Assembly (NCBI GenBank): GCA_963796105.1
Contig: CAWCKJ010000002.1
Location: forward strand, 96,001-160,000
From: a candidate division FCPU426 bacterium
GTDB lineage: Bacteria; Oederibacteriota; Muellerivitia; Muellerivitales; Muellerivitaceae
Reading direction: 5' to 3'
DNA length: 64,000 nt
Positions 2,702 to 64,000 of the stretch are shown in pieces. Position 1 is the first letter of the stretch, and the number at the start of each line of letters is the position of its first letter. The notes under the pieces were generated by a model. The model was not told where the DNA came from. It saw only the letters and a list, made by a program, of their open reading frames with translations, and made no database searches. The position numbers and the translations under genes were made by a program.

Positions 2702-3700
2702 GGGGTCAGGTCTTCATTTTATATTAACTCCTGGTACAATACATGAATGGCCCGACCCCTCCGAGTGCACTTTGAAGGCGCTGTGTATCACGTGACTTCC
2801 CGCGGGAATGAACGGGGGGACATTGTCCGTTCGGATCAAGACCGGGAATTGTTTTTGCGCGTTTTGTCCCATGTGGTGGAAGACCACCATGTGTTGTGCC
2901 ACGCCTGGGTGCTGATGAATAATCATTATCATCTGCTTCTTGAAACACCGGAAGCCAACTTATCGAAAGCCATCCGGCATCTCAATGGGGTCTATACCCA
3001 GAAATTCAACAGGACCCATGACCGGGTGGGTCATTTATTCCAGGGCCGTTTCAAGGCCATCCATGTGGAGAAAGGCTCTCATTTGTTGGAACTGTGCAGG
3101 TATTTGGCGTTGAATCCTGTGCGAGCCGGCATGGTCAAGCATCCCCGGGAGTGGCGATGGAGCAGTTACCGCGCGACAGCGGGGGTCTCCGGGAAGGAGC
3201 CATGGCTTGAGGTGAATTGGGTTTTGAGCCAATTCGGGAAGCGTTTTAAGGTGGCCCAAGCTTCTTACAGGAAATTTGTTTTGGAGGGGATTGGGAAAAA
3301 GGGGTCGCCCTGGGATGAGATGGGCGGGAGCATTTATTACGGAGGAGAGGCGCTCAAGGAGAAGTTAAAGGGGTTGTTGAAGCGCAAAGACCCGGAGATA
3401 CCCTTAAAACATCACCGGATTGAGAGGCCGGCGGCAATGGAGGTGCTGAAACAAGTGTCGAGAGCCTATCGGGTGGATGAGAAAGTGATCACGGACAAAC
3501 GGCATCAAGTGAACGAGGCAAGGGATGTGGGCATGTACTTATTGCGGAAAAGATCGGGAATGTCTCTGGGGGAAATCGCGTCAAAGTTCGGCGTGAAATA
3601 CCCGGCGGTGGGAAATAGGCTGGCGGTGATGAGAAAGAAAGTTGAGACGGATCCTGGATTCAGGGCCAAGTTAGATAATATAAAATGAAGACCTGACCCC
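2702..3700 (+). mobile_element. 999-bp element with perfect 25-bp terminal inverted repeats carrying a Y1 HUH transposase (TIR-flanked RAYT type)
   Basis: ggggtcaggtcttcattttatatta at 2702-2726 and its exact reverse complement at 3676-3700. Confidence 0.85.
2747..3688 (+). CDS. RAYT-like Y1 tyrosine transposase with C-terminal DnaA-C-like HTH
   Basis: YHVTSRGN, LMNNHYHLL (HUH), HLFQGRFKA, YLALNPVRAG, WSSY; C-terminal SLGEIASKFG HTH. Confidence 0.9.
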   Translation: MARPLRVHFEGAVYHVTSRGNERGDIVRSDQDRELFLRVLSHVVEDHHVLCHAWVLMNNHYHLLLETPEANLSKAIRHLNGVYTQKFNRTHDRVGHLFQGRFKAIHVEKGSHLLELCRYLALNPVRAGMVKHPREWRWSSYRATAGVSGKEPWLEVNWVLSQFGKRFKVAQASYRKFVLEGIGKKGSPWDEMGGSIYYGGEALKEKLKGLLKRKDPEIPLKHHRIERPAAMEVLKQVSRAYRVDEKVITDKRHQVNEARDVGMYLLRKRSGMSLGEIASKFGVKYPAVGNRLAVMRKKVETDPGFRAKLDNIK

Positions 3701-3788
3701 AATGCGGGGGTGTGCCGGCTCAAGAATGCTTGGCCTTTTTGCCTTTAATTCATAATTTAAAATTCAAAATTTAGAATTCATTCATGTG

Positions 3789-3860
3789 CCGATCATCTGT
3801 GAAAACAAGATGAGAACGGTACGATACCAGCCTCAGTAAAAGTTTTATGGAAGGCTGGCA
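3789..3860 (+). repeat. Element A single unit flanked by TGTG/TGTG
   Basis: tgtg-ccgatcatct...ggtacgataccagcc...ggaaggctggca-tgtg. Confidence 0.85.
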
Positions 3861-16795: not shown

Positions 16796-16812
16796 TTTCG
16801 AAGAAACCTGTG

Positions 16813-17343
16813 CCAATCTTCCATAAAGATTAAATGGAGATTGGTACGATACCAGCCACCCTATTAGTTTTATGGAGGGCTGGCATGTGCCAATCTTCCA
16901 TAAAGATTAAATGGAGATTGGTACGATACCAGCCACCCTATTAGTTTTATGGAGGGCTGGCATGTGCCAATCTTCCATTAAGCATATGTGGAGATTGGTA
17001 CGATACCAGCCACCTATTAGTTTTATGGAGGGCTGGCATGTGCCAATCTTCCATTAAGCATATGTGGAGATTGGTACGATACCAGCCACCTATTAGTTTT
17101 ATGGAGGGCTGGCATGTGCCAATCTTCCATAAAGATTAAATGGAGATTGGTACGATACCAGCCACCCTATTAGTTTTATGGAGGGCTGGCATGTGCCAAT
17201 CTTCCATTAAGCATATGTGGAGATTGGTACGATACCAGCCACCTATTAGTTTTATGGAGGGCTGGCATGTGCCAATCTTCCATTAAGCATATGTGGAGAT
17301 TGGTACGATACCAGCCACCTATTAGTTTTATGGAGGGCTGGCA
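16813..17343 (+). repeat. Tandem array of 7 element A units (76/77 bp, two variants in order 1-1-2-2-1-2-2)
   Basis: TGCCAATCTT starts at 16811, 16888, 16965, 17041, 17117, 17194 and 17270. Confidence 0.95.
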
Positions 17344-17375
17344 TGTTGGTGTGCGCCCCAAACCTTGGACAGTTT

Positions 17376-18212
17376 TTACTCCAAGTTGAGAATAGGTTTT
17401 CCGGCGATTGGTTTGAGTGACTTTAAAGCCTCGAACTCCTCAGGCGGCATGTAGCCGATAGAAGAATGCAACCGTTTTTTGTTATACACCTCCTCGATGA
17501 AGTATGGAAGTCTTTGAAGCACTTCCTGATAAGTTTCGTAATTGAATAGATGCACCTCCTCATATTTCAAGGTTTTGAAAAAGGATTCCGCATTTGCATT
17601 GTCGTAAGGGTTGCCTGTCCTGGACATGCTGATCCTTAATCCTTTGGACTCAAGCAGGGCCACGTAATCCCAGCAGGCATATTGCACCCCTCTGTCTGAA
17701 TGGTGGATGCATCCCGGAAGAGGATTCCTTTCCTCTAAAGCCATGCGTAAAGCCGAAAGCGACAACTCCCGATCCAGTCTCTTGGAAACCGCCCACCCGA
17801 TCACCTTTCTGGAAAAACGATCCAGAATGGCCGCCAGATAAACAAAGCAAGTGAGGATTCGGATATAGGTAATATCCGCCACCCACACTTGATTGACAGC
17901 AGTTTCTGCCACCCTTTCCAAGAGGTTGGGGAACACCGGCAGGTCGTGATTGGATTGGGTGGTTTGGATCTTGAACCTTTTCCCCCAAATAATAGGGTAA
18001 AGACCGTATTTCCTTACCACCCGCCGAATCCGTTTGGCGTTAATCCTTAATCCCTCCCGTAAAAAGTGGTGGTAGAGCCTCCGATAGCCGTAGTAGGGGA
18101 AGGTCAATCTCACCTGCTCGATTCGGTTCTTTAAGTCCAAATCTCTTTGTTCCTGAATCTCCGGTTCACTTTTAAGTGCAGAATAATAGGTACTTCGAGG
18201 AAGCCCCATCAT
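17376..18212 (-). CDS. IS3 transposase OrfB (DDE)
   Basis: YGYRR, WVADITYI, HHSDRGVQY, DNANAESFFKTLK, RLHSSIGY. Confidence 0.95.
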   Translation of the reverse strand: MMGLPRSTYYSALKSEPEIQEQRDLDLKNRIEQVRLTFPYYGYRRLYHHFLREGLRINAKRIRRVVRKYGLYPIIWGKRFKIQTTQSNHDLPVFPNLLERVAETAVNQVWVADITYIRILTCFVYLAAILDRFSRKVIGWAVSKRLDRELSLSALRMALEERNPLPGCIHHSDRGVQYACWDYVALLESKGLRISMSRTGNPYDNANAESFFKTLKYEEVHLFNYETYQEVLQRLPYFIEEVYNKKRLHSSIGYMPPEEFEALKSLKPIAGKPILNLE

Positions 18213-18556
18213 TTGGCATCCTCTTGAAATTGAGCCAAATTCCTTGAGGTGATCACGGAGGTATCGAGCTTTCTCTGGTTTTCCGCGTATTTTTGGAATT
18301 TTTTTAAAAGGTCTATCGCCATGATCAATTCCCCAATCTTGGCTTTGAGTTTCTCATTCTCTTTTTCCAAGGCTTTTTCACGGGGGGAAGGCTTTTCAAC
18401 CAGTGATCCTTGGCGAAATTTATCCCGCCAATTCTTTATGACGCTAGGGTCGATTTGATATTGGCGTGCGGCCCCATTAATGGACTGGCCAGACTCTATT
18501 TCCCGAACAACCTGTTGTTTGAAATCAACACTGAATTTTCGTCGTATTTTACCCAT
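18209..18556 (-). CDS. IS3 transposase OrfA (HTH plus leucine zipper)
   Basis: RRKFSVDFKQQVV...AARQYQI...W; overlaps OrfB by ATGA. Confidence 0.9.
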   Translation of the reverse strand: MGKIRRKFSVDFKQQVVREIESGQSINGAARQYQIDPSVIKNWRDKFRQGSLVEKPSPREKALEKENEKLKAKIGELIMAIDLLKKFQKYAENQRKLDTSVITSRNLAQFQEDAK

Positions 18557-18646
18557 CTGGAAACGCTCCTTTGGGGGGCTACCCCTTGAGCCGTTTCCCT
18601 ATTCTCTATTTTTTGCTTCAACTGTCCAACCTAAGGGCGCATACCA

Positions 18647-20057
18647 CCCTCTCATAGTTGAAAAGAAGGTGGTGGCTCCTCTGCCCAGACTGTAAAGTCT
18701 GGGTGACCAATTTTTTTAAAAAAGAGAGGAAACCACCATGAAAAAGTTACACCGTAGTGCCTTGAAAGGCGACAAGAATCTTTGGCAGATGCCGCTCAGC
18801 CCGGAAGATCGGGTGGCAATGATTCAGGACGGGCTTAACAGCTTGGCTTACCAGTTAGGGGTGATGGCGGCCCAAGAGTTTTTGCAGGCTGAAATCAAAG
18901 ACTTTTGTGGTCCCCGATACCAACGCCAGCCGGAACGGTCGATCAGCCGTTGGGGAAGTCAAGGCGGAACCGTGGTTTTAGCGGGCCGAAAAGTGCCCAT
19001 CCTCAAGCCCCGGGCTCGGATGAAAGACGGCCGTGAGATCGTTTTAGAAACCTACCAGAAACTCCAAAATCCCGAAGCCATACCTGAAAGCGCCCTTCGG
19101 CATATGGTTCGAGGGGTTTCCTGCCGGGAGTACGAAGGTTGCCTGGAACCGTTGGCCAAAGGCTTTGGGATGAAGCGCTCTTGCGTGAGTCGAGGGTTCG
19201 TAAAGGCCTCGGCGAAACAGATGAAATTACTTGCGGAAAGGCGTTTTGAGGGCCAAGAGTTTCTGGCGGTATTCATCGACGGAGTGCCCTATGGGGGCGA
19301 GATGATGGTAGTAGCCCTGGGAGTGAAAGGCGGAAAAGACGCTGGAAAGAAAGTTATTTTGGGGCTTCGTCAAGGGGCCACGGAGAACGCCCAGGTCTGT
19401 AGCGACCTGCTGACGGACTTGAGGGACCGGGGTCTTTCCTTTGGAAATCCGATGTTGTTCATACTGGATGGGTCCAAGGCTCTGACGGCAGCCGTGAAAC
19501 GGCTTTGTGGGGAAAAAGCGAAAATCCAACGTTGTCAGCAGCACAAAATCCGAAACGTGCTGGGCTATGTGACTAAAAAACATCAAGACGAAATCCGCGA
19601 TCGCATGGCCGAAGCTTACGCCTGCCAGGATTGGCGAGAAGGGGAGAAACGCCTGAATACCCTGGCCGCCTGGCTGACGCGGATTAACCCAGATGCCGCC
19701 GCCAGCCTGAGGGAAGGCCTTGAAGAAACTCTGACGGTGGTCAAACTGGGCCTCCCTGCGGTGTTGGCGAAAAGCTTAGTGACGACGAACCCCATCGAGT
19801 CGGCATTCAGTGTGGCGGGCAAGGTGACCGGGAGGGTGAAACGGTGGCGAGGTGGAGACATGCGCCGACGCTGGTTAACGGCGGGCCTGATGCGGGCCGA
19901 AGAGGCTTTCAGACGCCTGAAGGGATACAGGGAAATTCCAATCTTACAGGCGGCTTTGAGGAGGTGTACGGCGAACGACGTTGACGGGGAAACAGCTGCG
20001 GCTTAAGGTAGTCAAATCGGAGCCGCCACGAATTTCAACTGACGGCGGGACAACTTC
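18647..20057 (+). mobile_element. IS256-family insertion sequence, left tip apparently truncated
   Basis: Left ccctctcatagttgaaaagaaggtggtggctcc versus right ggagccgccacgaatttcaactgacggcgggacaacttc. Confidence 0.8.
18738..20006 (+). CDS. IS256-family transposase
   Basis: GVSCREY, VFIDG, ILDGSKAL, QRCQQHK.RN and TTNPIES motifs. Confidence 0.95.
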   Translation: MKKLHRSALKGDKNLWQMPLSPEDRVAMIQDGLNSLAYQLGVMAAQEFLQAEIKDFCGPRYQRQPERSISRWGSQGGTVVLAGRKVPILKPRARMKDGREIVLETYQKLQNPEAIPESALRHMVRGVSCREYEGCLEPLAKGFGMKRSCVSRGFVKASAKQMKLLAERRFEGQEFLAVFIDGVPYGGEMMVVALGVKGGKDAGKKVILGLRQGATENAQVCSDLLTDLRDRGLSFGNPMLFILDGSKALTAAVKRLCGEKAKIQRCQQHKIRNVLGYVTKKHQDEIRDRMAEAYACQDWREGEKRLNTLAAWLTRINPDAAASLREGLEETLTVVKLGLPAVLAKSLVTTNPIESAFSVAGKVTGRVKRWRGGDMRRRWLTAGLMRAEEAFRRLKGYREIPILQAALRRCTANDVDGETAAA

Positions 20058-20058
20058 G

Positions 20059-20294
20059 CCGATTTTCCATAAATCAGTTAATGAAATCGGTGCTATACCG
20101 AACTTTCCTTTTAAGCCTTATGGTGGTTTAGCATGAGTTCCTGTGCCAATCTTCCTTTAAGCATATGTGGAGATTGGTACGATACCAGCCCCCTATTAGT
20201 TTTATGGAGGGCTGGCATGTGCCAATCTTCCATAAAGATTAAATGGAGATTGGTACGATACCAGCCACCCTATTAGTTTTATGGAGGGCTGGCA
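20059..20294 (+). repeat. Three element A units continuing the array on the far side of the IS pair
   Basis: ccgattttccata...; two ccaatcttcc...ggca units; ends TGTG-GTTAGA. Confidence 0.85.
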
Positions 20295-21963: not shown

Positions 21964-22949
21964 CATGCTTCTGTATTAAGTGACCCTTGAAATAAAGGAA
22001 TACATAGGTATACTGTCCGCTACGGGAGGTGGTACATGAGCTACCAGCGGATGAAAAGCATTAAAATTCTGAGGAAAATCCACACGGAAGAAGAAGCCCG
22101 CCAATGGGTGTGGAGATGCCGTTTCGGCGGGAAAGACTTTGTTTGTCCCCAATGTGAGGGCGAAAGCTTCTGGCAACACCAGGCCAAGCCTGAAGTGAGG
22201 GAATGTGACTATTGCCGGAAACGTCTTCGGCTTCGCGCCGGGACGATTTTTGAAAGCTCCAAGCTGCCTCTTTTAACCTGGGTCAGGGCCATCAGTTTGA
22301 TGATGCAGGGCAAACGGGGTATTTCGGCCCTGGAACTGAAGCGGCATTTAAATCTTTCGGATCATTCGGCATGGCTTCTATTGCATAAGATCCGGGAAGG
22401 TCTTAGGCAAAAGGACGAAAGCTATACTCTAAAGGGCGTCATTGAGTTGGATGGGGCGGTTTTTGGGAAAAAGGCCAAGGAAAACCAAGTGGAAGTCTTG
22501 GTGGCGGTGGAAAGCAAGGAATGGGTGGATGAGAATGGTTGCAAGAAGGAAAAAGCGGGTTTTGCCAAGGTGAAGGTAGCTATGGAAACCAAGTGGGAGA
22601 GCCAGGAATTCGTGAATCAGACTATGGAAAAAGGCTCTTTCCTCAACACAGATGCTTCGCCAGCCTTGCGTGAACTCAAAGGAGTGGAGGCAGACTACCG
22701 GGTGATGGCCAATGACCCGAAAGAGTTGGAAAGTTGGTTGCCCTGGGTACACCGGTTCATTTCCAACGCCAAGGCCTGGATCATTGGAACTCATCATGGC
22801 GTTGATGCTAAGTATTTAGGCCGGTATCTAAGTGAATATGCCTATCGGTTCAACCGTCGTCATGATCCCGATTCCTTATTTCACCGTGCTTTGACCGCAT
22901 GTGCCTTAGCAAAACCCATTACAGCACGGTCACTTTGTGCATAAGCATA
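21964..22949 (+). mobile_element. IS1595-family element, copy 1 (986 bp)
   Basis: IRs catgcttctgtattaagtgacc / ggtcactttgtgcataagcata; 8-bp TSD gaattatc. Confidence 0.95.
22036..22944 (+). CDS. IS1595 transposase
   Basis: CPQC..CDYC zinc ribbon, AGTIFESSKLPL..W, IELD, HHGV..KYL..YL.E..YRFNRR. Confidence 0.95.
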   Translation: MSYQRMKSIKILRKIHTEEEARQWVWRCRFGGKDFVCPQCEGESFWQHQAKPEVRECDYCRKRLRLRAGTIFESSKLPLLTWVRAISLMMQGKRGISALELKRHLNLSDHSAWLLLHKIREGLRQKDESYTLKGVIELDGAVFGKKAKENQVEVLVAVESKEWVDENGCKKEKAGFAKVKVAMETKWESQEFVNQTMEKGSFLNTDASPALRELKGVEADYRVMANDPKELESWLPWVHRFISNAKAWIIGTHHGVDAKYLGRYLSEYAYRFNRRHDPDSLFHRALTACALAKPITARSLCA

Positions 22950-23056
22950 GAATTATCCAATTGACACCCTTTACCGGGTCGCTATTGCCCTGGAATGCAG
23001 CGTACCTGATCTTCTTATAAGTCCCACCACGTTATGGCCCTTTACGGGGAGACTTT

Positions 23057-24244: not shown

Positions 24245-24343
24245 CGTGGCAAAATGAGGTGATGTGTTTTTGTTTTAACTGTGTACTTTGTGGTTTCGAA
24301 GAAACCCGTGGTGAAAAGTAGTTGTTGTTGCTGAGTCTCTGCG

Positions 24344-25263
24344 CCGATTCACCAAAAAGCAGTAAATGAAATCGGTGCGATACCAGCCACATTATTAGTT
24401 TTATGGAGGGCTGGCATGCGCCGATTCACCAAAAAGCAGTAAATGAAATCGGTGCGATACCAGCCACATTATTAGTTTTATGGAGGGCTGGCATGCGCCG
24501 ATTCACCATAAAGCAGTTAAGGGAATCGGTGCTATACAGGCCGCATGAGGCTGCCAGCCGAGTGCGACGGTTGCCAGCGCATGCCAGCCTTCCATAAGGC
24601 TGTTATGGGGGCTGGTATTGCACTGATCTCAAAATCCTTTTATGGTTGATCAGCGCATGCCAGCCTTCCATAAGGCTGTTATGGGGGCTGGTATTGCACT
24701 GATCTCAAAATCCTTTTATGGTTGATCAGCGCATGCCAGCCTTCCATAAGGCTGTTATGGGGGCTGGTATTGCACTGATCTCAAAATCCTTTTATGGTTG
24801 ATCAGCGCATGCCAGCCTTCCATAAGGCTGTTATGGGGGCTGGTATTGCACTGATCTCAAAATCCTTTTATGGTTGATCAGCGCATGCCAGCCTTCCATA
24901 AGGCTGTTATGGGGGCTGGTATTGCACTGATCTCAAAATCCTTTTATGGTTGATCAGCGCATGCCAGCCTTCCATAAGGCTGTTATGGGGGCTGGTATTG
25001 CACTGATCTCAAAATCCTTTTATGGTTGATCAGCGCATGCCAGCCTTCCATAAGGCTGTTATGGGGGCTGGTATTGCACTGATCTCAAAATCCTTTTATG
25101 GTTGATCAGCGCATGCCAGCCTTCCATAAGGCTGTTATGGGGGCTGGTATTGCACTGATCTCAAAATCCTTTTATGGTTGATCAGCGCAGATTTAATGTA
25201 AATCTGTACCGAACTTTCATTAAAAGTTTTATAGAGAAAATGGCTTTGCCATTTTAGTGGGCA
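24344..25263 (+). repeat. Three element A units; the third contains B (24537-25206), which contains an inverted A array, plus hairpin C
   Basis: Units at 24344, 24421 and 24498; TA-[cagg...tctg]-TA. Confidence 0.85.
24582..25189 (-). repeat. Perfect tandem array of 8 x 76-bp element A units
   Basis: tgccagccttccataagg starts every 76 bp from 24582 to 25114. Confidence 0.95.
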
Positions 25264-31178: not shown

Positions 31179-31495
31179 GATAACCCGCCGACAGTACCGT
31201 CGGCCTGGGTCGGTAAGCTGAGATAACCCGCCGACAGTACCGTCGGCATGGGCCGGTAAGCCGAGATAACCCGCCGACAGTGCCGTCGGCATGGGTCGGT
31301 AAGCTGAGATAACCCGCCGACAGTACCGTCGGCATAGGCCGGTAAGCTGGGATAACCCGCCGACAGTACCGTCGGCATAGGCCGGTAAGCTGAGATAACC
31401 CGCCGACAGTGCCGTCGGCATGGGTCGGTAAGCCGGGATAACCCGCCGACAGTGCCGTGGGCATGGCCCGGTAAGCTGAGATAACCCGCCGACAG
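31179..31495. repeat. Tandem array of 43-bp units (7 full plus a partial) with a GCCGAC-N6-GTCGGC palindrome
   Basis: gataacccgccgacag starts at 31179, 31222, 31265, 31308, 31351, 31394, 31437 and 31480. Confidence 0.95.
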
Positions 31496-58045: not shown

Positions 58046-58268
58046 TGCCAGCCCTCCATAAAACTAATAGGGGGCTGGTATCGTACCAATCTCCACATAT
58101 GCTTAAAGGAAGATTGGCACAGGGACTCATGCCGAACCACCGTAAGGCTTTAAAGGAAAGTTCGGTACAGATTTACTATAAATCTGCCCCGGCAATCCTC
58201 TCACTCGGCTGGTAGCCTCATGCGGCCTGTATAGCACCGATTTCATTAACTGATTTATGGAAAATCGG
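58046..58268 (-). repeat. Two element A units, one carrying an empty element B (58168-58229)
   Basis: Inverted paralogue of 20059-20217, where B is absent. Confidence 0.88.
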
Positions 58269-58442
58269 CGCAGAGACTCAGCTAAAACAACCATCTTTTA
58301 CCACAGGTTTCTTCGAAACCACAGAGTACACGGTAAAGCGTCCTCTTGGGTACGGCTAAAACATCAAAACAACTACGTCATCTCACCACAGTTGTGCTTC
58401 GCACAGCACAGAGACTCAGCTACTACTTTTGCCACGGATGTA

Positions 58443-58936: not shown

Positions 58937-59922
58937 CATGCTTCTGTATTAAGTGACCCTTGAAATAAAGGAATACATAGGTATACTGTCCGCTACGGGA
59001 GGTGGTACATGAGCTACCAGCGGATGAAAAGCATTAAAATTCTGAGGAAAATCCACACGGAAGAAGAAGCCCGCCAATGGGTGTGGAGATGCCGTTTCGG
59101 CGGGAAAGACTTTGTTTGTCCCCAATGTGAGGGCGAAAGCTTCTGGCAACACCAGGCCAAGCCTGAAGTGAGGGAATGTGACTATTGCCGGAAACGTCTT
59201 CGGCTTCGCGCCGGGACGATTTTTGAAAGCTCCAAGCTGCCTCTTTTAACCTGGGTCAGGGCCATCAGTTTGATGATGCAGGGCAAACGGGGTATTTCGG
59301 CCCTGGAACTGAAGCGGCATTTAAATCTTTCGGATCATTCGGCATGGCTTCTATTGCATAAGATCCGGGAAGGTCTTAGGCAAAAGGACGAAAGCTATAC
59401 TCTAAAGGGCGTCATTGAGTTGGATGGGGCGGTTTTTGGGAAAAAGGCCAAGGAAAACCAAGTGGAAGTCTTGGTGGCGGTGGAAAGCAAGGAATGGGTG
59501 GATGAGAATGGTTGCAAGAAGGAAAAAGCGGGTTTTGCCAAGGTGAAGGTAGCTATGGAAACCAAGTGGGAGAGCCAGGAATTCGTGAATCAGACTATGG
59601 AAAAAGGCTCTTTCCTCAACACAGATGCTTCGCCAGCCTTGCGTGAACTCAAAGGAGTGGAGGCAGACTACCGGGTGATGGCCAATGACCCGAAAGAGTT
59701 GGAAAGTTGGTTGCCCTGGGTACACCGGTTCATTTCCAACGCCAAGGCCTGGATCATTGGAACTCATCATGGCGTTGATGCTAAGTATTTAGGCCGGTAT
59801 CTAAGTGAATATGCCTATCGGTTCAACCGTCGTCATGATCCCGATTCCTTATTTCACCGTGCTTTGACCGCATGTGCCTTAGCAAAACCCATTACAGCAC
59901 GGTCACTTTGTGCATAAGCATA
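58937..59922 (+). mobile_element. IS1595-family element, copy 2
   Basis: Same IRs and protein as copy 1; 8-bp TSD aaacctta. Confidence 0.95.
59009..59917 (+). CDS. IS1595 transposase
   Basis: Translation identical to 22036-22944. Confidence 0.95.
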   Translation: MSYQRMKSIKILRKIHTEEEARQWVWRCRFGGKDFVCPQCEGESFWQHQAKPEVRECDYCRKRLRLRAGTIFESSKLPLLTWVRAISLMMQGKRGISALELKRHLNLSDHSAWLLLHKIREGLRQKDESYTLKGVIELDGAVFGKKAKENQVEVLVAVESKEWVDENGCKKEKAGFAKVKVAMETKWESQEFVNQTMEKGSFLNTDASPALRELKGVEADYRVMANDPKELESWLPWVHRFISNAKAWIIGTHHGVDAKYLGRYLSEYAYRFNRRHDPDSLFHRALTACALAKPITARSLCA

Positions 59923-60191
59923 AAACCTTATGTTAACTGTTTAACTTTTCTCCCTTCTTTACATTTTTAAGAGTAAAATTCAAGCCATGGGGGGATTTCC
60001 AGAGGGTGTTTTCAGGTCTTTGGGATATGAGATTGACGCCATCAAATGGACGTCGGATTAAGCCTTACTCCTAATTCCTAATTTCTTTTCAGCGGTTCTT
60101 AACTCCTAACCCCGCCATGAAAGCGCCGCCGATACCCCCGGCGTCCGCTTCAGGGTCCTCATTTTTAATGCCTAACTGCTCTTGAGGGGGG

Positions 60192-60593
60192 TTATTTCTT
60201 TTTGCGGGGGCGGGTTTTTGATTTGGATTTACTCACCTTGTATTCAGCGTGGGGTTCTTGAAGACCTGGCGGCAGTATGTTTTGGAGCTTCTGTTTTAAA
60301 ACCGGAAGATCCTTTACCGTTACTCCCCAAACAACTTCAAGGTCTACTTGGAAATAATCATGGACCAGTATATGCCGCATTCCCTGGATGGCATCCCATG
60401 GTACCTCGGAATGTTTATTCCGGAATTCAGGGGGTACTTTATATGCCGCTTCACCCAAGATTTGGAGATAGTGGAGGATATAAACCTGAATCAATTCGTC
60501 TGCATTGAAGGCTTTGCGGCCCTGCGAAGAATATTTCTCGATCCGATGGATGGCATCAAGCATATCCTGGACCCGATTCAAATGGTCCCTCAT
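60192..60593 (-). CDS. DUF86/HepT RNase toxin
   Basis: IGEA-like LGEA, VPW, RHILVHDY (R-X4-H-X-Y). Confidence 0.9.
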   Translation of the reverse strand: MRDHLNRVQDMLDAIHRIEKYSSQGRKAFNADELIQVYILHYLQILGEAAYKVPPEFRNKHSEVPWDAIQGMRHILVHDYFQVDLEVVWGVTVKDLPVLKQKLQNILPPGLQEPHAEYKVSKSKSKTRPRKKK

Positions 60594-60883: not shown

Positions 60884-61231
60884 TTATCCCGCTCGGTTAA
60901 CTTGCTGAAGGCCTTCCAGGTAACAAGTAATAGCTTCTTTCGCGTTTTCCAAGGCCTCCTTGATGGTCTCACCTTGGGAGAAGCAACCGTCCAAAGCCGG
61001 GACTCGGACATTGAAACCGCCCTCATCGGCATGTGCCAATCGGACATGAAAATAAATCGGGATTGGTACCATACCAGCCACATTAAAGTTTTGTGGAAGG
61101 CTTGCATGTTCCAGAACAACGTCAAGGGACGACCCATTGGGTCGCCACTTGGCCGGGACATGGTCCCCGGCCAAGTACACGGCTTGTCCCCGGCTAAAGC
61201 CGGGGCCTGAAGGCAGCCGGTCAAATTTCAT
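60884..61231 (-). CDS. hicB: HicB-family antitoxin with two in-frame element insertions
   Basis: Removing the 99-bp and 75-bp inserts gives MKFDVVLEHADEGGFNVRVPALDGCFSQGETIKEALENAKEAITCYLE. Confidence 0.85.
   Translation of the reverse strand: MKFDRLPSGPGFSRGQAVYLAGDHVPAKWRPNGSSLDVVLEHASLPQNFNVAGMVPIPIYFHVRLAHADEGGFNVRVPALDGCFSQGETIKEALENAKEAITCYLEGLQQVNRAG
61036..61106 (+). repeat. Element A unit inside hicB
   Basis: GCATGT at 61029-61034 and 61104-61109, 75 bp apart. Confidence 0.85.
61121..61219 (-). mobile_element. Element E copy (99 bp) inside hicB
   Basis: Minus strand TTGAC|cggctgcc..ggccccggctttagccgggg..gtcccttgac|GTT. Confidence 0.82.
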
Positions 61232-61349: not shown

Positions 61350-61994
61350 TTATGTATTCGGCCCTTTGTTATTCGCTTTTTTGAGAAGTTTTCGATAGAG
61401 ACCGCCAAAAGGGCCTTCCAGGGCGCTTTTCTCGAAATATTCCGCTTCTTCCCTCCAAGTCATGCCTTTAGTCGCCTTGTGGATTTTGCGTTGGATCTCT
61501 TCTTTCATTTTTAAGGCATCGAAACCCTTGATGGGCTTAATTTTTTTAATTTTGCGATGCCGCGTTTTTGGTTTGGGTTTACCTGGTTTATATATGGAAT
61601 GGATTTCGTGGAAGCCGGGTGGATTGAATTCTCCAATAGGTAGACGCCGGATTCGGACATCATCTTTCTCAATAATGATGATGGCGCCATTTATAAGAGG
61701 TTCCTCGATGATTGACCAATTTTTTTCAAGGTTACCGGCCAGGTTAGCGACGGTCATTTTTTGCGTGCGGAATATCACGACTGAAGGCCTGGATTTTCCT
61801 GAAAAAGCCAATATTTTCCCAAAATCCAAATCGTGGGTTAAAAGTACAGAACCCCTTGACTCAGCGAGGGATAAAATAACCTCGTCGCCCGCTTTACTAT
61901 GACCAAGTTTTCCTGAGTGTATGGCTTGATGACCAAGGCGGGCCAAGTGCTGGCAAAGTGATGGGGAAAGGTTGTTATCTAAAAAGAATTTCAT
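61350..61994 (-). CDS. DUF5615 PIN-like toxin with long C-terminal extension
   Basis: MKFFLDNNL, LLTHDLDFG, PSVV.FR, RIRRLP. Confidence 0.85.
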   Translation of the reverse strand: MKFFLDNNLSPSLCQHLARLGHQAIHSGKLGHSKAGDEVILSLAESRGSVLLTHDLDFGKILAFSGKSRPSVVIFRTQKMTVANLAGNLEKNWSIIEEPLINGAIIIIEKDDVRIRRLPIGEFNPPGFHEIHSIYKPGKPKPKTRHRKIKKIKPIKGFDALKMKEEIQRKIHKATKGMTWREEAEYFEKSALEGPFGGLYRKLLKKANNKGPNT

Positions 61995-62230: not shown

Positions 62231-62390
62231 AACGCTGCCTTTCAGCGGTAATTATAACATTGGATGGGAATGAATGGTATTCGGCAACTCCTAATTCCGA
62301 ATTGCTAATCGTTCTTTAGGAGTTATTTCTTTTTACGGGGCCGCGTTTTTGGTTTTCTTTGCCTTTGCACAGATTTACTATAAATCTGCG

Positions 62391-62990
62391 CCGATCTACC
62401 GTGAAGAGACATTGAGATCGGTGCAATACCAGCCTCTTTAAAGTTTTTTGGAGGGCTGGCATGCGCCGATCTACCGTGAAGAGACATTGAGATCGGTGCA
62501 ATACCAGCCTCTTTAAAGTTTTTTGGAGGGCTGGCATGCGCCGATCTACCGTGAAGAGACATTGAGATCGGTGCAATACCAGCCTCTTTAAAGTTTTTTG
62601 GAGGGCTGGCATGCGCCGATCTACCGTGAAGAGACATTGAGATCGGTGCAATACCAGCCTCTTTAAAGTTTTTTGGAGGGCTGGCATGCGCCGATCTACC
62701 GTGAAGAGACATTGAGATCGGTGCAATACCAGCCTCTTTAAAGTTTTTTGGAGGGCTGGCATGCGCCGATCTACCGTGAAGAGACATTGAGATCGGTGCA
62801 ATACCAGCCTCTTTAAAGTTTTTTGGAGGGCTGGCATGCGCCGATCTACCGTGAAGAGACATTGAGATCGGTGCAATACCAGCCTCTTTAAAGTTTTTTG
62901 GAGGGCTGGCATGCGCCGATCTACCGTGAAGAGACATTGAGATCGGTGCAATACCAGCCTCTTTAAAGTTTTTTGGAGGGCTGGCATGCG
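62391..62990 (+). repeat. Perfect tandem array of 8 x 75-bp element A units inside element B (62370-63031)
   Basis: ccgatctacc recurs every 75 bp from 62391 to 62916. Confidence 0.95.
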
Positions 62991-63087
62991 CCGGCAATCT
63001 TCTCCTTCGGCTGGTGGCCTCAGGAGGCCGGTATTCAGCGGGGGATTCGTGGACGGCGCCGCCGGACGGCAGGATTTCCAGAACAAA

Positions 63088-64000
63088 GGGGTCAGGCCTA
63101 CATTTTACACTTTACAAATAATTCGCCATTTTTAGAATATGCTTATGCCAAGACCCAGGCGAATTCATTATGAGGGGGCTGTTTACCACGTGACCTCCCG
63201 AGGGAACGAGCGGCGCGAGATTGTCAAGACCGACTCGGACCGATGGATGTTTTACAGACTATTGGGGGAAATGATCGAGGAAAATAAGGTGCTTTGCCAC
63301 GCCTGGGTACTGATGAACAACCATTACCATCTCTTGCTGGAGACGCCCGCAGCCAATCTTTCCATCGCGATGAAGCATTTAAACAGTATTTATACCCAGC
63401 GTTTTAATAAAAAATATCAAAGGGCCGGCCATTTATTCCAGGGGCGGTTCAAGGCCATTGTGGTTGAGAAGGATAGCTACTTGAAAGAGTTATGCCGGTA
63501 TGTGGTTTTGAATCCCGTGAGGGCGAAGGCGGTCAAGGCTCCGGGGGATTGGAAGTGGAGCAGTTACCGCGCGACTGCCGGCCTGGAAAAGGGGGAACCG
63601 TGGCTGGAAACGGATTGGATTCTCAGTCAGTTCGGAAGTACCCTCAATGAGGCACGGAAAAGCTATCGGGCTTTTGTGGCTGGCGGAATCGGGAGCAAGG
63701 TTTCCCCCTGGGAAGAACTTTATTCCCGCGTATATTTGGGAAAAGAGAAATTTTTGATCAAGGTGCATGAGGCGGGGCGAAAGCATAGGCATTTGGATGT
63801 CCCGAAGTACCAGAAACAAGTGGTGAAGGCTGACCCGGAAAAGATTCTCGGGAAAATCGCCGAAGTCTATGGGGGAAAACCCGAGGAGATTTTGCAAGCC
63901 GGAAGAAGGGGGATGGATTCCCGGGACGCGGCGATCTATTTGCTGAAGAGGGAAGCGGGGCTAAGTTTGAGGGAGATCGGCAAAAGGATGGGAGTGGGTT
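63088..64000 (+). mobile_element. Second TIR-associated Y1 transposase element (partial)
   Basis: ggggtcaggcctacattttacacttt at 63088-63113 directly upstream of the transposase. Confidence 0.75.
63145..64000 (+). CDS. RAYT-like Y1 tyrosine transposase (runs off window; not in ORF track)
   Basis: Manual translation MPRPRRIHYEGAVYHVTSRGN...LMNNHYHLL...HLFQGRFKA...NPVRA...WSSY. Confidence 0.9.
   Translation, partial: MPRPRRIHYEGAVYHVTSRGNERREIVKTDSDRWMFYRLLGEMIEENKVLCHAWVLMNNHYHLLLETPAANLSIAMKHLNSIYTQRFNKKYQRAGHLFQGRFKAIVVEKDSYLKELCRYVVLNPVRAKAVKAPGDWKWSSYRATAGLEKGEPWLETDWILSQFGSTLNEARKSYRAFVAGGIGSKVSPWEELYSRVYLGKEKFLIKVHEAGRKHRHLDVPKYQKQVVKADPEKILGKIAEVYGGKPEEILQAGRRGMDSRDAAIYLLKREAGLSLREIGKRMGVG

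Follow-up and report, generated by a model that had tools for sequence, protein, structure and literature searches.

The window analysed here, a stretch of 64,000 nucleotides from contig CAWCKJ010000002.1 of a candidate division FCPU426 bacterium, contains close to its right end a homogeneous tandem array of a short repeat, hereafter A, at positions 62387-62993 of the forward strand. Tandem Repeats Finder (TRF) gives this array a period of 75, 8.1 copies, 100% matches and zero indels; the 75-bp period is directly visible in the raw letters too, and the units receive eight equal scores with both nhmmer and Infernal, so that the eight identical 75-bp units of the initial annotation are borne out. 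Each unit consists of TG followed by a 73-bp element (CGCC...GGCA), neighbouring units share one duplicated dinucleotide at their junction ([A]TG[A]), and the last unit is followed by TGCGCCG, a heptamer common to A and to B, the repeat in which the array is lodged. The left part of B (62370-62390, forward strand; positions 2-27 of the B profile model) is the hairpin CAGATTTAC-TAT-AAATCTG plus CG, and the right part (62991-63034, forward strand) covers positions 21-68 of the same profile. The two halves around the array, CAGATTTACTATAAATCTGCG (62370-62390) and CCGGCAATCTTCTCCTTCGGCTGGTGGCCTCAGGAGGCCGG (62991-63031), the latter reading CCGGCAATC...GGCCGG, add up to 21 + 41 = 62 bp, exactly the length previously given for B minus the array. 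Since A opens with TGCGCCG and B continues with the same seven bases (TGCGCTG at the other B-borne array, see below), the break point between A and B is ambiguous within 7 bp. Folded as ssDNA, the region 62340-63040 has a z-score of -14.4, which none of 20 shuffles equals. The second Y1 transposase element of the window starts with GGGGTCAGG at position 63088, i.e., at the expected distance of 57 bp past 63031, and the genes around the array are, according to Pfam, DUF433/DUF5615, HepT/MntA, HicB and TIRYT genes.

A second block of the same construction is found on the reverse strand at 24534-25206, with the right part of B at 24534-24577, an A array at 24575-25189 (8 identical units; TRF period 76, 8.1 copies, 100%) and the left part of B at 25186-25206. 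Both arrays thus lie between the same two B halves (19 of 21 positions identical on the left, 33 of 44 on the right), and the 674-bp B::A blocks of the two loci align at 77.9% with different A variants, in agreement with the earlier claim that the same B position was filled by a different A. Segmental duplication as the origin of this pair was rejected, the two loci sharing only the B::A block and an IS1595-like copy (989 bp, 99.9%). The B of the 24534-25206 block is itself inserted in another A array (24340-24537, forward strand; 2.6 units, TRF period 77, 95%), whose third unit is broken after its first hairpin by the B::A block. Further to the left, an array of 7 units at 16809-17346 (forward strand; TRF periods 76, 153 and 229, the last at 98%) combines two subtypes, which succeed each other as a a b b a b b, with nhmmer scores alternating between 76.3 and 71.9. 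Its right end is abutted by an element assigned to the IS3 family from its Pfam-identified genes and its sequence, and a small A array at 20057-20294 (forward strand) comprises one diverged unit plus subtype-b-like and subtype-a units; no A sequence is present past the right end of the IS3 element, which excludes that the 16.8- and 20.1-kb arrays are a single array split by the IS. A single A at 3785-3860 (forward strand) lies 84 bp past the right end of the first Y1 element at 3700, close to the 90 bp or so estimated before, and another copy lies beside an A::B composite at 58046-58272 (reverse strand; C2:154046-154272) in which B is intact, its own site for A being unoccupied, and sits at the TA of the A linker. 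While both B-borne arrays hold exactly 8 units, the five remaining A arrays hold 2.6, 2.6, 3, 3.1 and 7.

A profile built from six window copies was used to search the 4.98-Mb genome with nhmmer, and returned 179 matches for A, or 165 once weaker opposite-strand overlaps were dropped, at about 127 loci. These include 124 full-length copies with 95 distinct sequences, and 133 of the 165 matches fall outside every open frame of at least 150 codons, such frames occupying 85.6% of the genome. With a crude gene proxy, A copies showed no preference as to orientation (27 aligned with their neighbouring genes, 24 opposed to them) or type of intergenic region. The A unit folds as two hairpins in direct order, of about 36-38 nt each, whose feet in the consensus are TGCC/GGTA and TACC/GGCA. 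These hairpins covary: among 14 distinct copies from the window, both partners vary at 7 of 18 pairs, a value reached by none of 500 shuffles. The pair 7-33 is for instance G-C in 69 copies and A-T in 25, the pair 10-30 is C-G in 65 copies and T-A in 25, and the pairs 45-72 and 46-71 switch both partners likewise. At position 4, in hairpin 1, a G.T pair is found in 75 of the 95 distinct copies, and across A copies G.T outnumbers A.C (172 vs 49). Within the taxonomic family, a covariance model detects A in 21 of the 24 other genomes; none of 16 genomes from other families of the phylum gives a match. Copies from other genera retain both hairpins and the G.T pair, and the unit, its linker included, is kept across at least 13 genera. 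A 17-letter degenerate pattern applied to all genomes gave at least 94 stretches, mostly chance, and 4 of the 80 pattern loci submitted to the A model are true A elements.

Several known classes were considered for A and discarded. No Rfam family is found at gathering scores, and with E up to 10 only chance-level microRNA and snoRNA matches appear; together with the absence of tRNA genes in the window according to ARAGORN, this rules out a tRNA or other known RNA. The units abut with zero spacers, unlike a CRISPR; no ToxN-like gene, the partner of a type III toxin-antitoxin RNA array, is detected by Pfam among the neighbours; and both IS200-type genes of the genome (C7:20697 and C14:47634) lack a nearby A, which argues against an end-remnant of IS200/IS605. 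A is best filed as an undescribed dispersed hairpin family, MITE-like and with the looks of REP/BIME sequences.

The element proper is about 74 bp long (TGCC...GGCA) and inserts as a discrete element that duplicates 2 bp of its target. Single copies of A fall into few flank classes, and an uninterrupted target exists for each class. One such target lies in a repeat, F, and reads CCAC[AG]GA-NN-CATGGGAT. Among 72 empty sites, NN is TT in 35, TG in 30, TA in 6 and AT in 1; of the 30 sites with a complete A (from 106 regex matches, the other 76 being chance short-flank pairs or half an A), 28 read TG[A]TG and 2 read TA[A]TA, with no discordant case. F can be split by its right flanks into three subfamilies, each with filled and empty sites, from which it follows that the same F position has been used repeatedly; F was rejected as coding sequence, reading frames through it stopping after 6-46 codons. 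The target CTCTGAGTCCC-TG-TGGTGA is empty at 14 sites and filled at 8, and the target CCCTGAATC-CG-TGGCAA is empty at 32 and filled at 7, the latter with CG on both sides. B, finally, has a single TG in its empty copies and reads TG[A]...TG in the filled ones. A therefore has four recurrent target types, always entered at the same position and all represented by empty sites. Because the duplicated dinucleotide tracks the target (TG, TA or CG), it indicates target-site duplication or recombination with a 2-bp core; a recombinase whose crossover core is 2 bp long could indeed produce the flanking repeat in place of a staggered cut. The ends of the A consensus, TGCCGATCTTCCATAAAAAT and TGCCAGCCTTCCATAAAGCT, form an inverted repeat with 15 of 20 positions matching and are of the TGCCRRYCTTCCATAAA type, although individual copies have weaker terminal inverted repeats (9.3 of 17 positions on average, counted crudely and without gaps). 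No stretch of this genome combines hairpin 1 and hairpin 2 around 0.1-6 kb of sequence with a transposase, and the IS30 and IS630 copies of this genome have ends unrelated to A. The lack of a transposase with matching ends and the weak per-copy inverted repeats both weigh against the history favoured below. In two cases, identical A copies occur in different F copies only 1-4 kb apart (C3:306772/307910 and C11:68011/71965).

B is likewise a small hairpin repeat, of which 6-7 copies sit at the TA of the A linker, with TA on both sides, about 5 are solo and 2 are split by A arrays; the elements of this genome are consequently nested, with A in B, B in A and A in F. None of the roughly 11 other B copies contains a single A. 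A genome of the same genus, G001, has an uninterrupted B that lacks A and shares its flanks on either side with the B at 62370, although the array region itself is absent from this genome, with no syntenic locus there. The right half of the 62370 B is identical to this empty B at 42 of 44 positions, and that of the 24.6-kb array at 40 of 44 positions to the empty B copies at C4:769554 and C2:103405, compared with only 33 of 44 between the two array-bearing copies. Likewise, the A variants of the two arrays are not closest to one another: they agree at about 78%, whereas some single copy matches each of them at up to 83%. As each array-bearing B is nearest to an empty one, independent filling of the same B site is the simpler reading, and the corresponding proposal of the initial annotation is supported. 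For the units at 62387-62993, the nearest A elsewhere in the genome is only 83% identical, and no outside donor is found; units that are mutually identical yet at most 83% identical to any other copy argue for local amplification.

The two Y1 genes of the window are carried by elements of the TIRtron kind. TIRtron 1 (2702-3700, forward strand) has inverted ends, GGGGTCAGGTC..., around the gene of a 313-aa Y1 protein (TIRYT; 2747-3688). TIRtron 2 (63088-64000, forward strand) opens with the left inverted end GGGGTCAGGCC... and contains a Y1 gene that starts at 63145 and runs past the window end, the right end of the element lying just outside the window. The proteins of TIRtrons 1 and 2 score 44 and 50 bits, respectively, with PF01797 (Y1_Tnp), and 88.7 and 86.8 bits with the NCBIfam model NF047646 (REP_Tyr_transpos; cut-off 80). 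Bac_DnaA_C (PF08299) reaches 32.9 bits in protein 1 (cut-off 31.5) and 24 bits, below cut-off, in protein 2, which is clipped by the window end. Compared with solved structures, protein 1 matches TnpA-REP (4ER8, E 5.7e-4) and DnaA domain IV (E 1.8e-4). The Y1 protein contains HYH, in the context ...MNNHYHLLLE, which we take to be the HUH motif. Genome-wide, 21 tblastn matches correspond to about 12 full-length Y1 copies plus fragments; all 12 full-length copies are bounded by AAACAWWGGGGTCAGG-type inverted ends, each in different flanks, and seven form a near-identical, recently spread subfamily. The TIRtron ends, GGGGTCAG, contain GGGGWSAS at both ends, a consensus given in PMC3733652 and PMC6006769, and inverted ends with this motif define TIRtrons in the description by Di Nocera et al. 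(2013, PMC3733652). The forms with a DnaA domain make up subclass 2.1.2, for which, as far as the account of Quentin et al. (2018, PMC6006769) goes, no REP-like partner is reported. The Y1 genes are of the TIRtron/TIRYT kind, and of subclass 2.1.2 by their Bac_DnaA_C match: they share with the published elements the Y1 HUH domain, the C-terminal Bac_DnaA_C-like helix-turn-helix, the GGGGWSAS ends and the lack of a REP partner. Unlike published TIRtrons, they reach about 12 full-length copies within a single genome, including the 7 near-identical ones, and often abut tandem arrays on one side. A tandem array of some kind is indeed found within 1 kb of 10 of the 18 Y1 loci, compared with 1.9 expected (0 of 3000 permutations reach 10), and these arrays belong to at least four unrelated sequence families. 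At seven loci examined in other genomes, no tandem array was found within 1.5 kb of TIRYT genes.

We favour, with some reserve, a history in which A inserted at B, was duplicated a first time and was then expanded by slippage or unequal exchange, the Y1 gene being part of an independent TIRtron; the first duplication and the expansion are both steps that we infer. A would be a small non-autonomous element with MITE-like chemistry, inserting at preferred short targets. One copy would have entered the B sequence TCTG^CGCCGGCAA at its TG, a target similar to the 5' end of A itself, and would thereby have come to lie between 7-bp direct repeats (TGCGCCG), with a target-like junction regenerated. 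A first head-to-tail dimer sharing one TG could then have arisen in either of two ways, slipped-strand copying from one flanking repeat to the other or a further insertion into the regenerated target, and replication slippage or unequal homologous exchange may have expanded this dimer and held its units identical, the adjacent Y1 gene presumably arriving with a TIRtron that landed beside the array. A comparable succession, from insertion-site preference to tandem dimers of transposable elements (TEs) and their expansion, has been described by McGurk and Barbash (2018, PMC5932611). The a a b b a b b order of the 7-unit array, with its period of 229 at 98%, points to exchange of multi-unit blocks, and the 281 tandem arrays of period 30 or more in this genome, from many unrelated families, indicate that tandem expansion is generally frequent in it. 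Against such an explanation of the arrays, none of the 30 insertions at F sites has become one. Against passive slippage, both independent B insertions are exactly 8 units long and no B holds a single A, which hints at something more directed than chance slippage. Finally, unit number and unit identity rest on one assembly.

It had been suggested at first that the arrays could be products of the Y1 enzyme. Following proposals made for TnpA-REP and BIME-2, the neighbouring Y1 (HUH) enzyme would cut the ssDNA hairpins of A, and rolling-circle copying or strand transfer would build the array; this we judge very unlikely, and the Y1 transposase next to the array is most likely unconnected with it. 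That the Y1 proteins pass the NCBIfam model of REP-associated tyrosine transposases and match the TnpA-REP structure is in keeping with such an activity, as are the conserved G.T pair and the excess of G.T over A.C, which suggest that one strand matters. Enzyme-driven models of BIME-2 are in print, and rolling circle is already among those published for the E. coli arrays (PMC3333891). A spatial association was found in part: A loci are nearer to Y1 genes than random ones (30 of 127 within 10 kb vs 7.7 expected, and 7 vs 1.4 expected within 1 kb), and Y1 loci are rich in adjoining arrays, as mentioned above. However, the excess stems from five clusters in islands rich in IS and toxin-antitoxin genes, an A is present within 5 kb of only 6 of 18 Y1 loci and of none of the 7 recently spread copies, and the array at 62387-62993 is alone among the 7 A arrays of at least 2.5 units in lying within 1 kb of a Y1 gene; belonging to at least four unrelated families, the arrays adjacent to Y1 look like landing sites and not like products. 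A leaves a 2-bp target duplication, unlike known Y1 transposition: to our knowledge, HUH/Y1 transposition as represented by IS608 and ISDra2 produces no target duplication. In addition, the TIRtron ends (AAACAWWGGGGTCAGG...) are unrelated to A or B, A is part of neither end, and the subclass concerned is described as devoid of REP partners (PMC6006769). Nor does the expected phylogenetic association hold, A being present without a Pfam Y1_Tnp match in seven relatives with completeness of 80-99% (G004, G007, G018, G019, G020, G021 and G023), and Y1 without A in G008, G012, G017 and all 11 Y1-positive genomes outside the family. E. coli strains lacking tnpA-REP retain their REPs (PMC3333891), which makes A without Y1 weak evidence against a link. 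Across the 25 family genomes, Y1 and A counts correlate with rho 0.31 (p 0.13) and genome size and A count with rho 0.57, and both tests overstate the relation since the genomes are kin.

The other part of the initial suggestion, repeated self-insertion, continues to compete with the favoured history, since the units follow the pattern [A]TG[A]TG... exactly, a single target-site dinucleotide separating each from the next. In that case, a candidate enzyme mobilising A would have built the whole array by repeated insertion beside a resident copy, a possibility that we hold to be real though doubtful. As the B site TG|CGCCGG resembles the 5' junction of A, TG|CGCCGA, each insertion would recreate a preferred target. 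IS30 behaves in a similar way, in that it inserts at its own ends and gives head-to-tail dimers whose copies are separated by a 2-bp spacer. The strong target preference of A for its four recurrent types, the fact that both independent B insertions became arrays, and the identical A pairs in neighbouring F copies, which hint at recent local mobility, all fit this scheme. Opposed to it are the failure of the hairpin-pair, IS30 and IS630 checks to reveal a mobilising enzyme in this genome, the age of the A copies (95 distinct among 124 full-length ones, array units at most 83% identical to others), from which recent transposition is not evident outside the arrays, and the 7-unit array, whose order of subtypes fits block exchange better than one-by-one insertion. 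A more specific version seems unlikely: a new enzyme would mobilise both A and B, cut at a YR dinucleotide and prefer targets like the end of the element itself, array growth then being a controlled, self-templating process that yielded 8 units twice. The same number in two independent arrays could also reflect selection, with A units acting as phased protein-binding or structured-RNA units and the number 8 being maintained. In favour of this, at least 13 genera have kept the two hairpins of the unit together with the G.T pair and the linker, and the genome is rich in other phased short arrays; yet A belongs to no Rfam family when E values as high as 10 are allowed, has no preferred orientation (27/24) or intergenic type by the crude gene proxy, and forms other arrays of variable length (2.6 to 7 units), and the region is absent from the same-genus genome G001. 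Selection on the array thus appears improbable. Slightly more improbable still is that the unit count or the perfect unit identity is an assembly artefact, as could be feared from the use of one assembly only and from the suspiciously similar lengths of the two B arrays (8.1 units each) and of the third array (7 units), all 540-615 bp. Against this, the genome is assembled in 16 contigs, the largest of 1.6 Mb, with hundreds of resolved arrays of many lengths, which suggests a long-read assembly, and independent runs hold the exact A-A junction. The sequence has four public holders, all of them short-read contigs from DNA, with no RNA run among them, and a 105-base piece matching the repeat exactly is found in 3 runs of 2 studies; it reveals the A-A junction, not the unit number. 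The word size of these contigs is 31 letters, and since a piece of 105 bases is expected from a 75-base loop with 31-letter words, it attests tandem A, unit number aside. Neither the B/A junction nor the A core has an exact match in JGI metagenome contigs.

With these results, an appealing but unsupported connection of a Y1 transposase with hairpin arrays gives way to a testable description: in a family of uncultured soil bacteria there is a set of tiny hairpin elements, nested in one another and not described before, which enter precise sites with duplication of 2 bp and are able to expand into arrays that resemble satellites. If array building were driven by an enzyme, they would offer a compact bacterial model of mobile elements turning into tandem repeats. 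REP/RAYT repeats are 20-40-nt extragenic palindromes with a GTAG or CGTC tag in the description of PMC3733652, whereas the A consensus has neither tag; REP repeats and Y1 genes would be expected to co-occur across genomes, whereas A and Y1 each occur without the other. In a REPtron, the Y1 gene is single-copy, vertically inherited and domesticated, and flanked by the repeat on both sides; here, Y1 is multi-copy in different flanks, and A is at neither TIRtron end. The BIME-2/REPtrons of E. coli, as presented by Ton-Hoang et al. (2012, PMC3333891), are close in appearance, with short extragenic hairpin units that form mosaics with other small motifs, a Y1 gene nearby, and tandem copies that are near-identical within a locus and different between loci, as are A arrays (100% within, 78% between). 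Nevertheless, BIME-2 combines a REP with an inverted REP, and not two hairpins in direct order as the A unit does; A insertion, unlike BIME-2/REP, duplicates 2 bp and involves no GTAG or CGTC tag; and the single-copy tnpA-REP gene of E. coli is flanked by the repeat, in contrast to the multi-copy TIRtrons with unrelated ends found here.

Bacterial MITEs are non-autonomous elements with terminal inverted repeats and target-site duplication. A resembles them in being non-coding and shorter than 100 bp, with a target duplication of fixed length, empty and filled sites, dozens of copies and insertion into other repeats; its terminal inverted repeats are apparent in the consensus (15/20) but weak in single copies. 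It differs in having no parent IS of matching ends among the IS30 and IS630 copies checked, in internal arms that form two separate covarying hairpins, and in its homogeneous 8-unit arrays, which are unusual for MITEs. MITEs of the IS630/Tc1 type duplicate a strict TA, whereas A duplicates TG, TA or CG. With the tandem TE dimers described in PMC5932611, where hobo reaches about 16 copies, the present arrays would share insertion-site preference and the succession of head-to-tail dimers and recombination, although those elements are eukaryotic and of kilobase size, and A is bacterial and 74 bp long. The array at 62387-62993 is best filed as a local amplification of A and, as it stands, is a further example of known behaviours, MITE insertion and BIME-like amplification.

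Tandem arrays (period of at least 30 bp, at least 2.5 copies) lie within 1 kb of 10 of the 18 Y1 (TIRtron) loci of the genome, a TIRtron being a Y1 transposase (TIRYT) gene between its own inverted ends, against 1.9 expected genome-wide, and none of 3000 permutations attained this number. On contigs C3, C7, and C11 of the source genome, for instance, the arrays at C3:193292-193543, C3:665965-666468, C7:100784-101599, and C11:132977-133269 adjoin the Y1 loci at C3:193610, C3:664976, C7:99793, and C11:133332, respectively. At several loci, one TIRtron inverted end is in direct contact with the array, which is then confined to that side. Because these arrays belong to at least four unrelated families, with units of 42-53 bp, they look like preferred landing sites of the TIRtrons. 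No adjacent tandem array was seen within 1.5 kb of seven TIRYT loci examined in other genomes.

The right inverted repeat of four of the seven near-identical TIRtron copies (C3:664976, C4:1409137, C11:133332, and C12:332373) carries an inserted hairpin of about 26 bp (CACTGCCACACGCTGCGGAGCGTGTG). A hairpin (GCCGACAGTACCGTCGGC) is also found within the 43-bp unit of the array at window 31179-31495 (7.4 copies), one among many phased non-coding arrays of the genome with units of 42-53 bp. The genome additionally encodes two classical IS200-type Y1 proteins of 151 aa (C7:20697-21053 and C14:47634-47990), which score identically and are unrelated to the TIRYT copies; among the genome-wide profile matches to A, the dispersed two-hairpin element of about 74 bp, none lies near either gene.

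The most frequent landing site of A is F (TTTAGCCACRGATGCATGGGATWCATGGGAT), a dispersed repeat in its own right whose reading frames end after 6-46 codons, and of which at least three subfamilies are told apart by their right flanks (examples at C4:458316, C6:267327, and C8:76593). The right end of the 7-unit A array is directly adjoined by an IS3-family element with rve and HTH_Tnp_1 genes (window 17347-18648), and this element is followed by an IS256-type transposase gene (18738-20006). An IS1595/ISXO2-like element of 989 bp occurs twice (21964-22952 and 58937-59925), with 99.9% identity between the copies, and each copy has, a few kb away, a toxin-antitoxin module of the DUF5615 type as well as a B::A array, that is, the small repeat B split by head-to-tail A units.

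Ahead of B, at window 62330-62368, stands a conserved module (GCCGCGTTTTTGGTTTTCTTTG...), which occupies the same place in G001, a genome of the same genus. On the minus strand, this module yields Lys/Arg-rich tails (KSKSKTRPRKKK-like), which also terminate or break up nearby toxin-antitoxin ORFs, as at the 3' ends of two minus-strand ORFs (60192-60593 and 61350-61994). G001 also contains at least 20 sequences that match, at 78-93% identity, another dispersed repeat, which spans about 110 bp at window 61117-61227.
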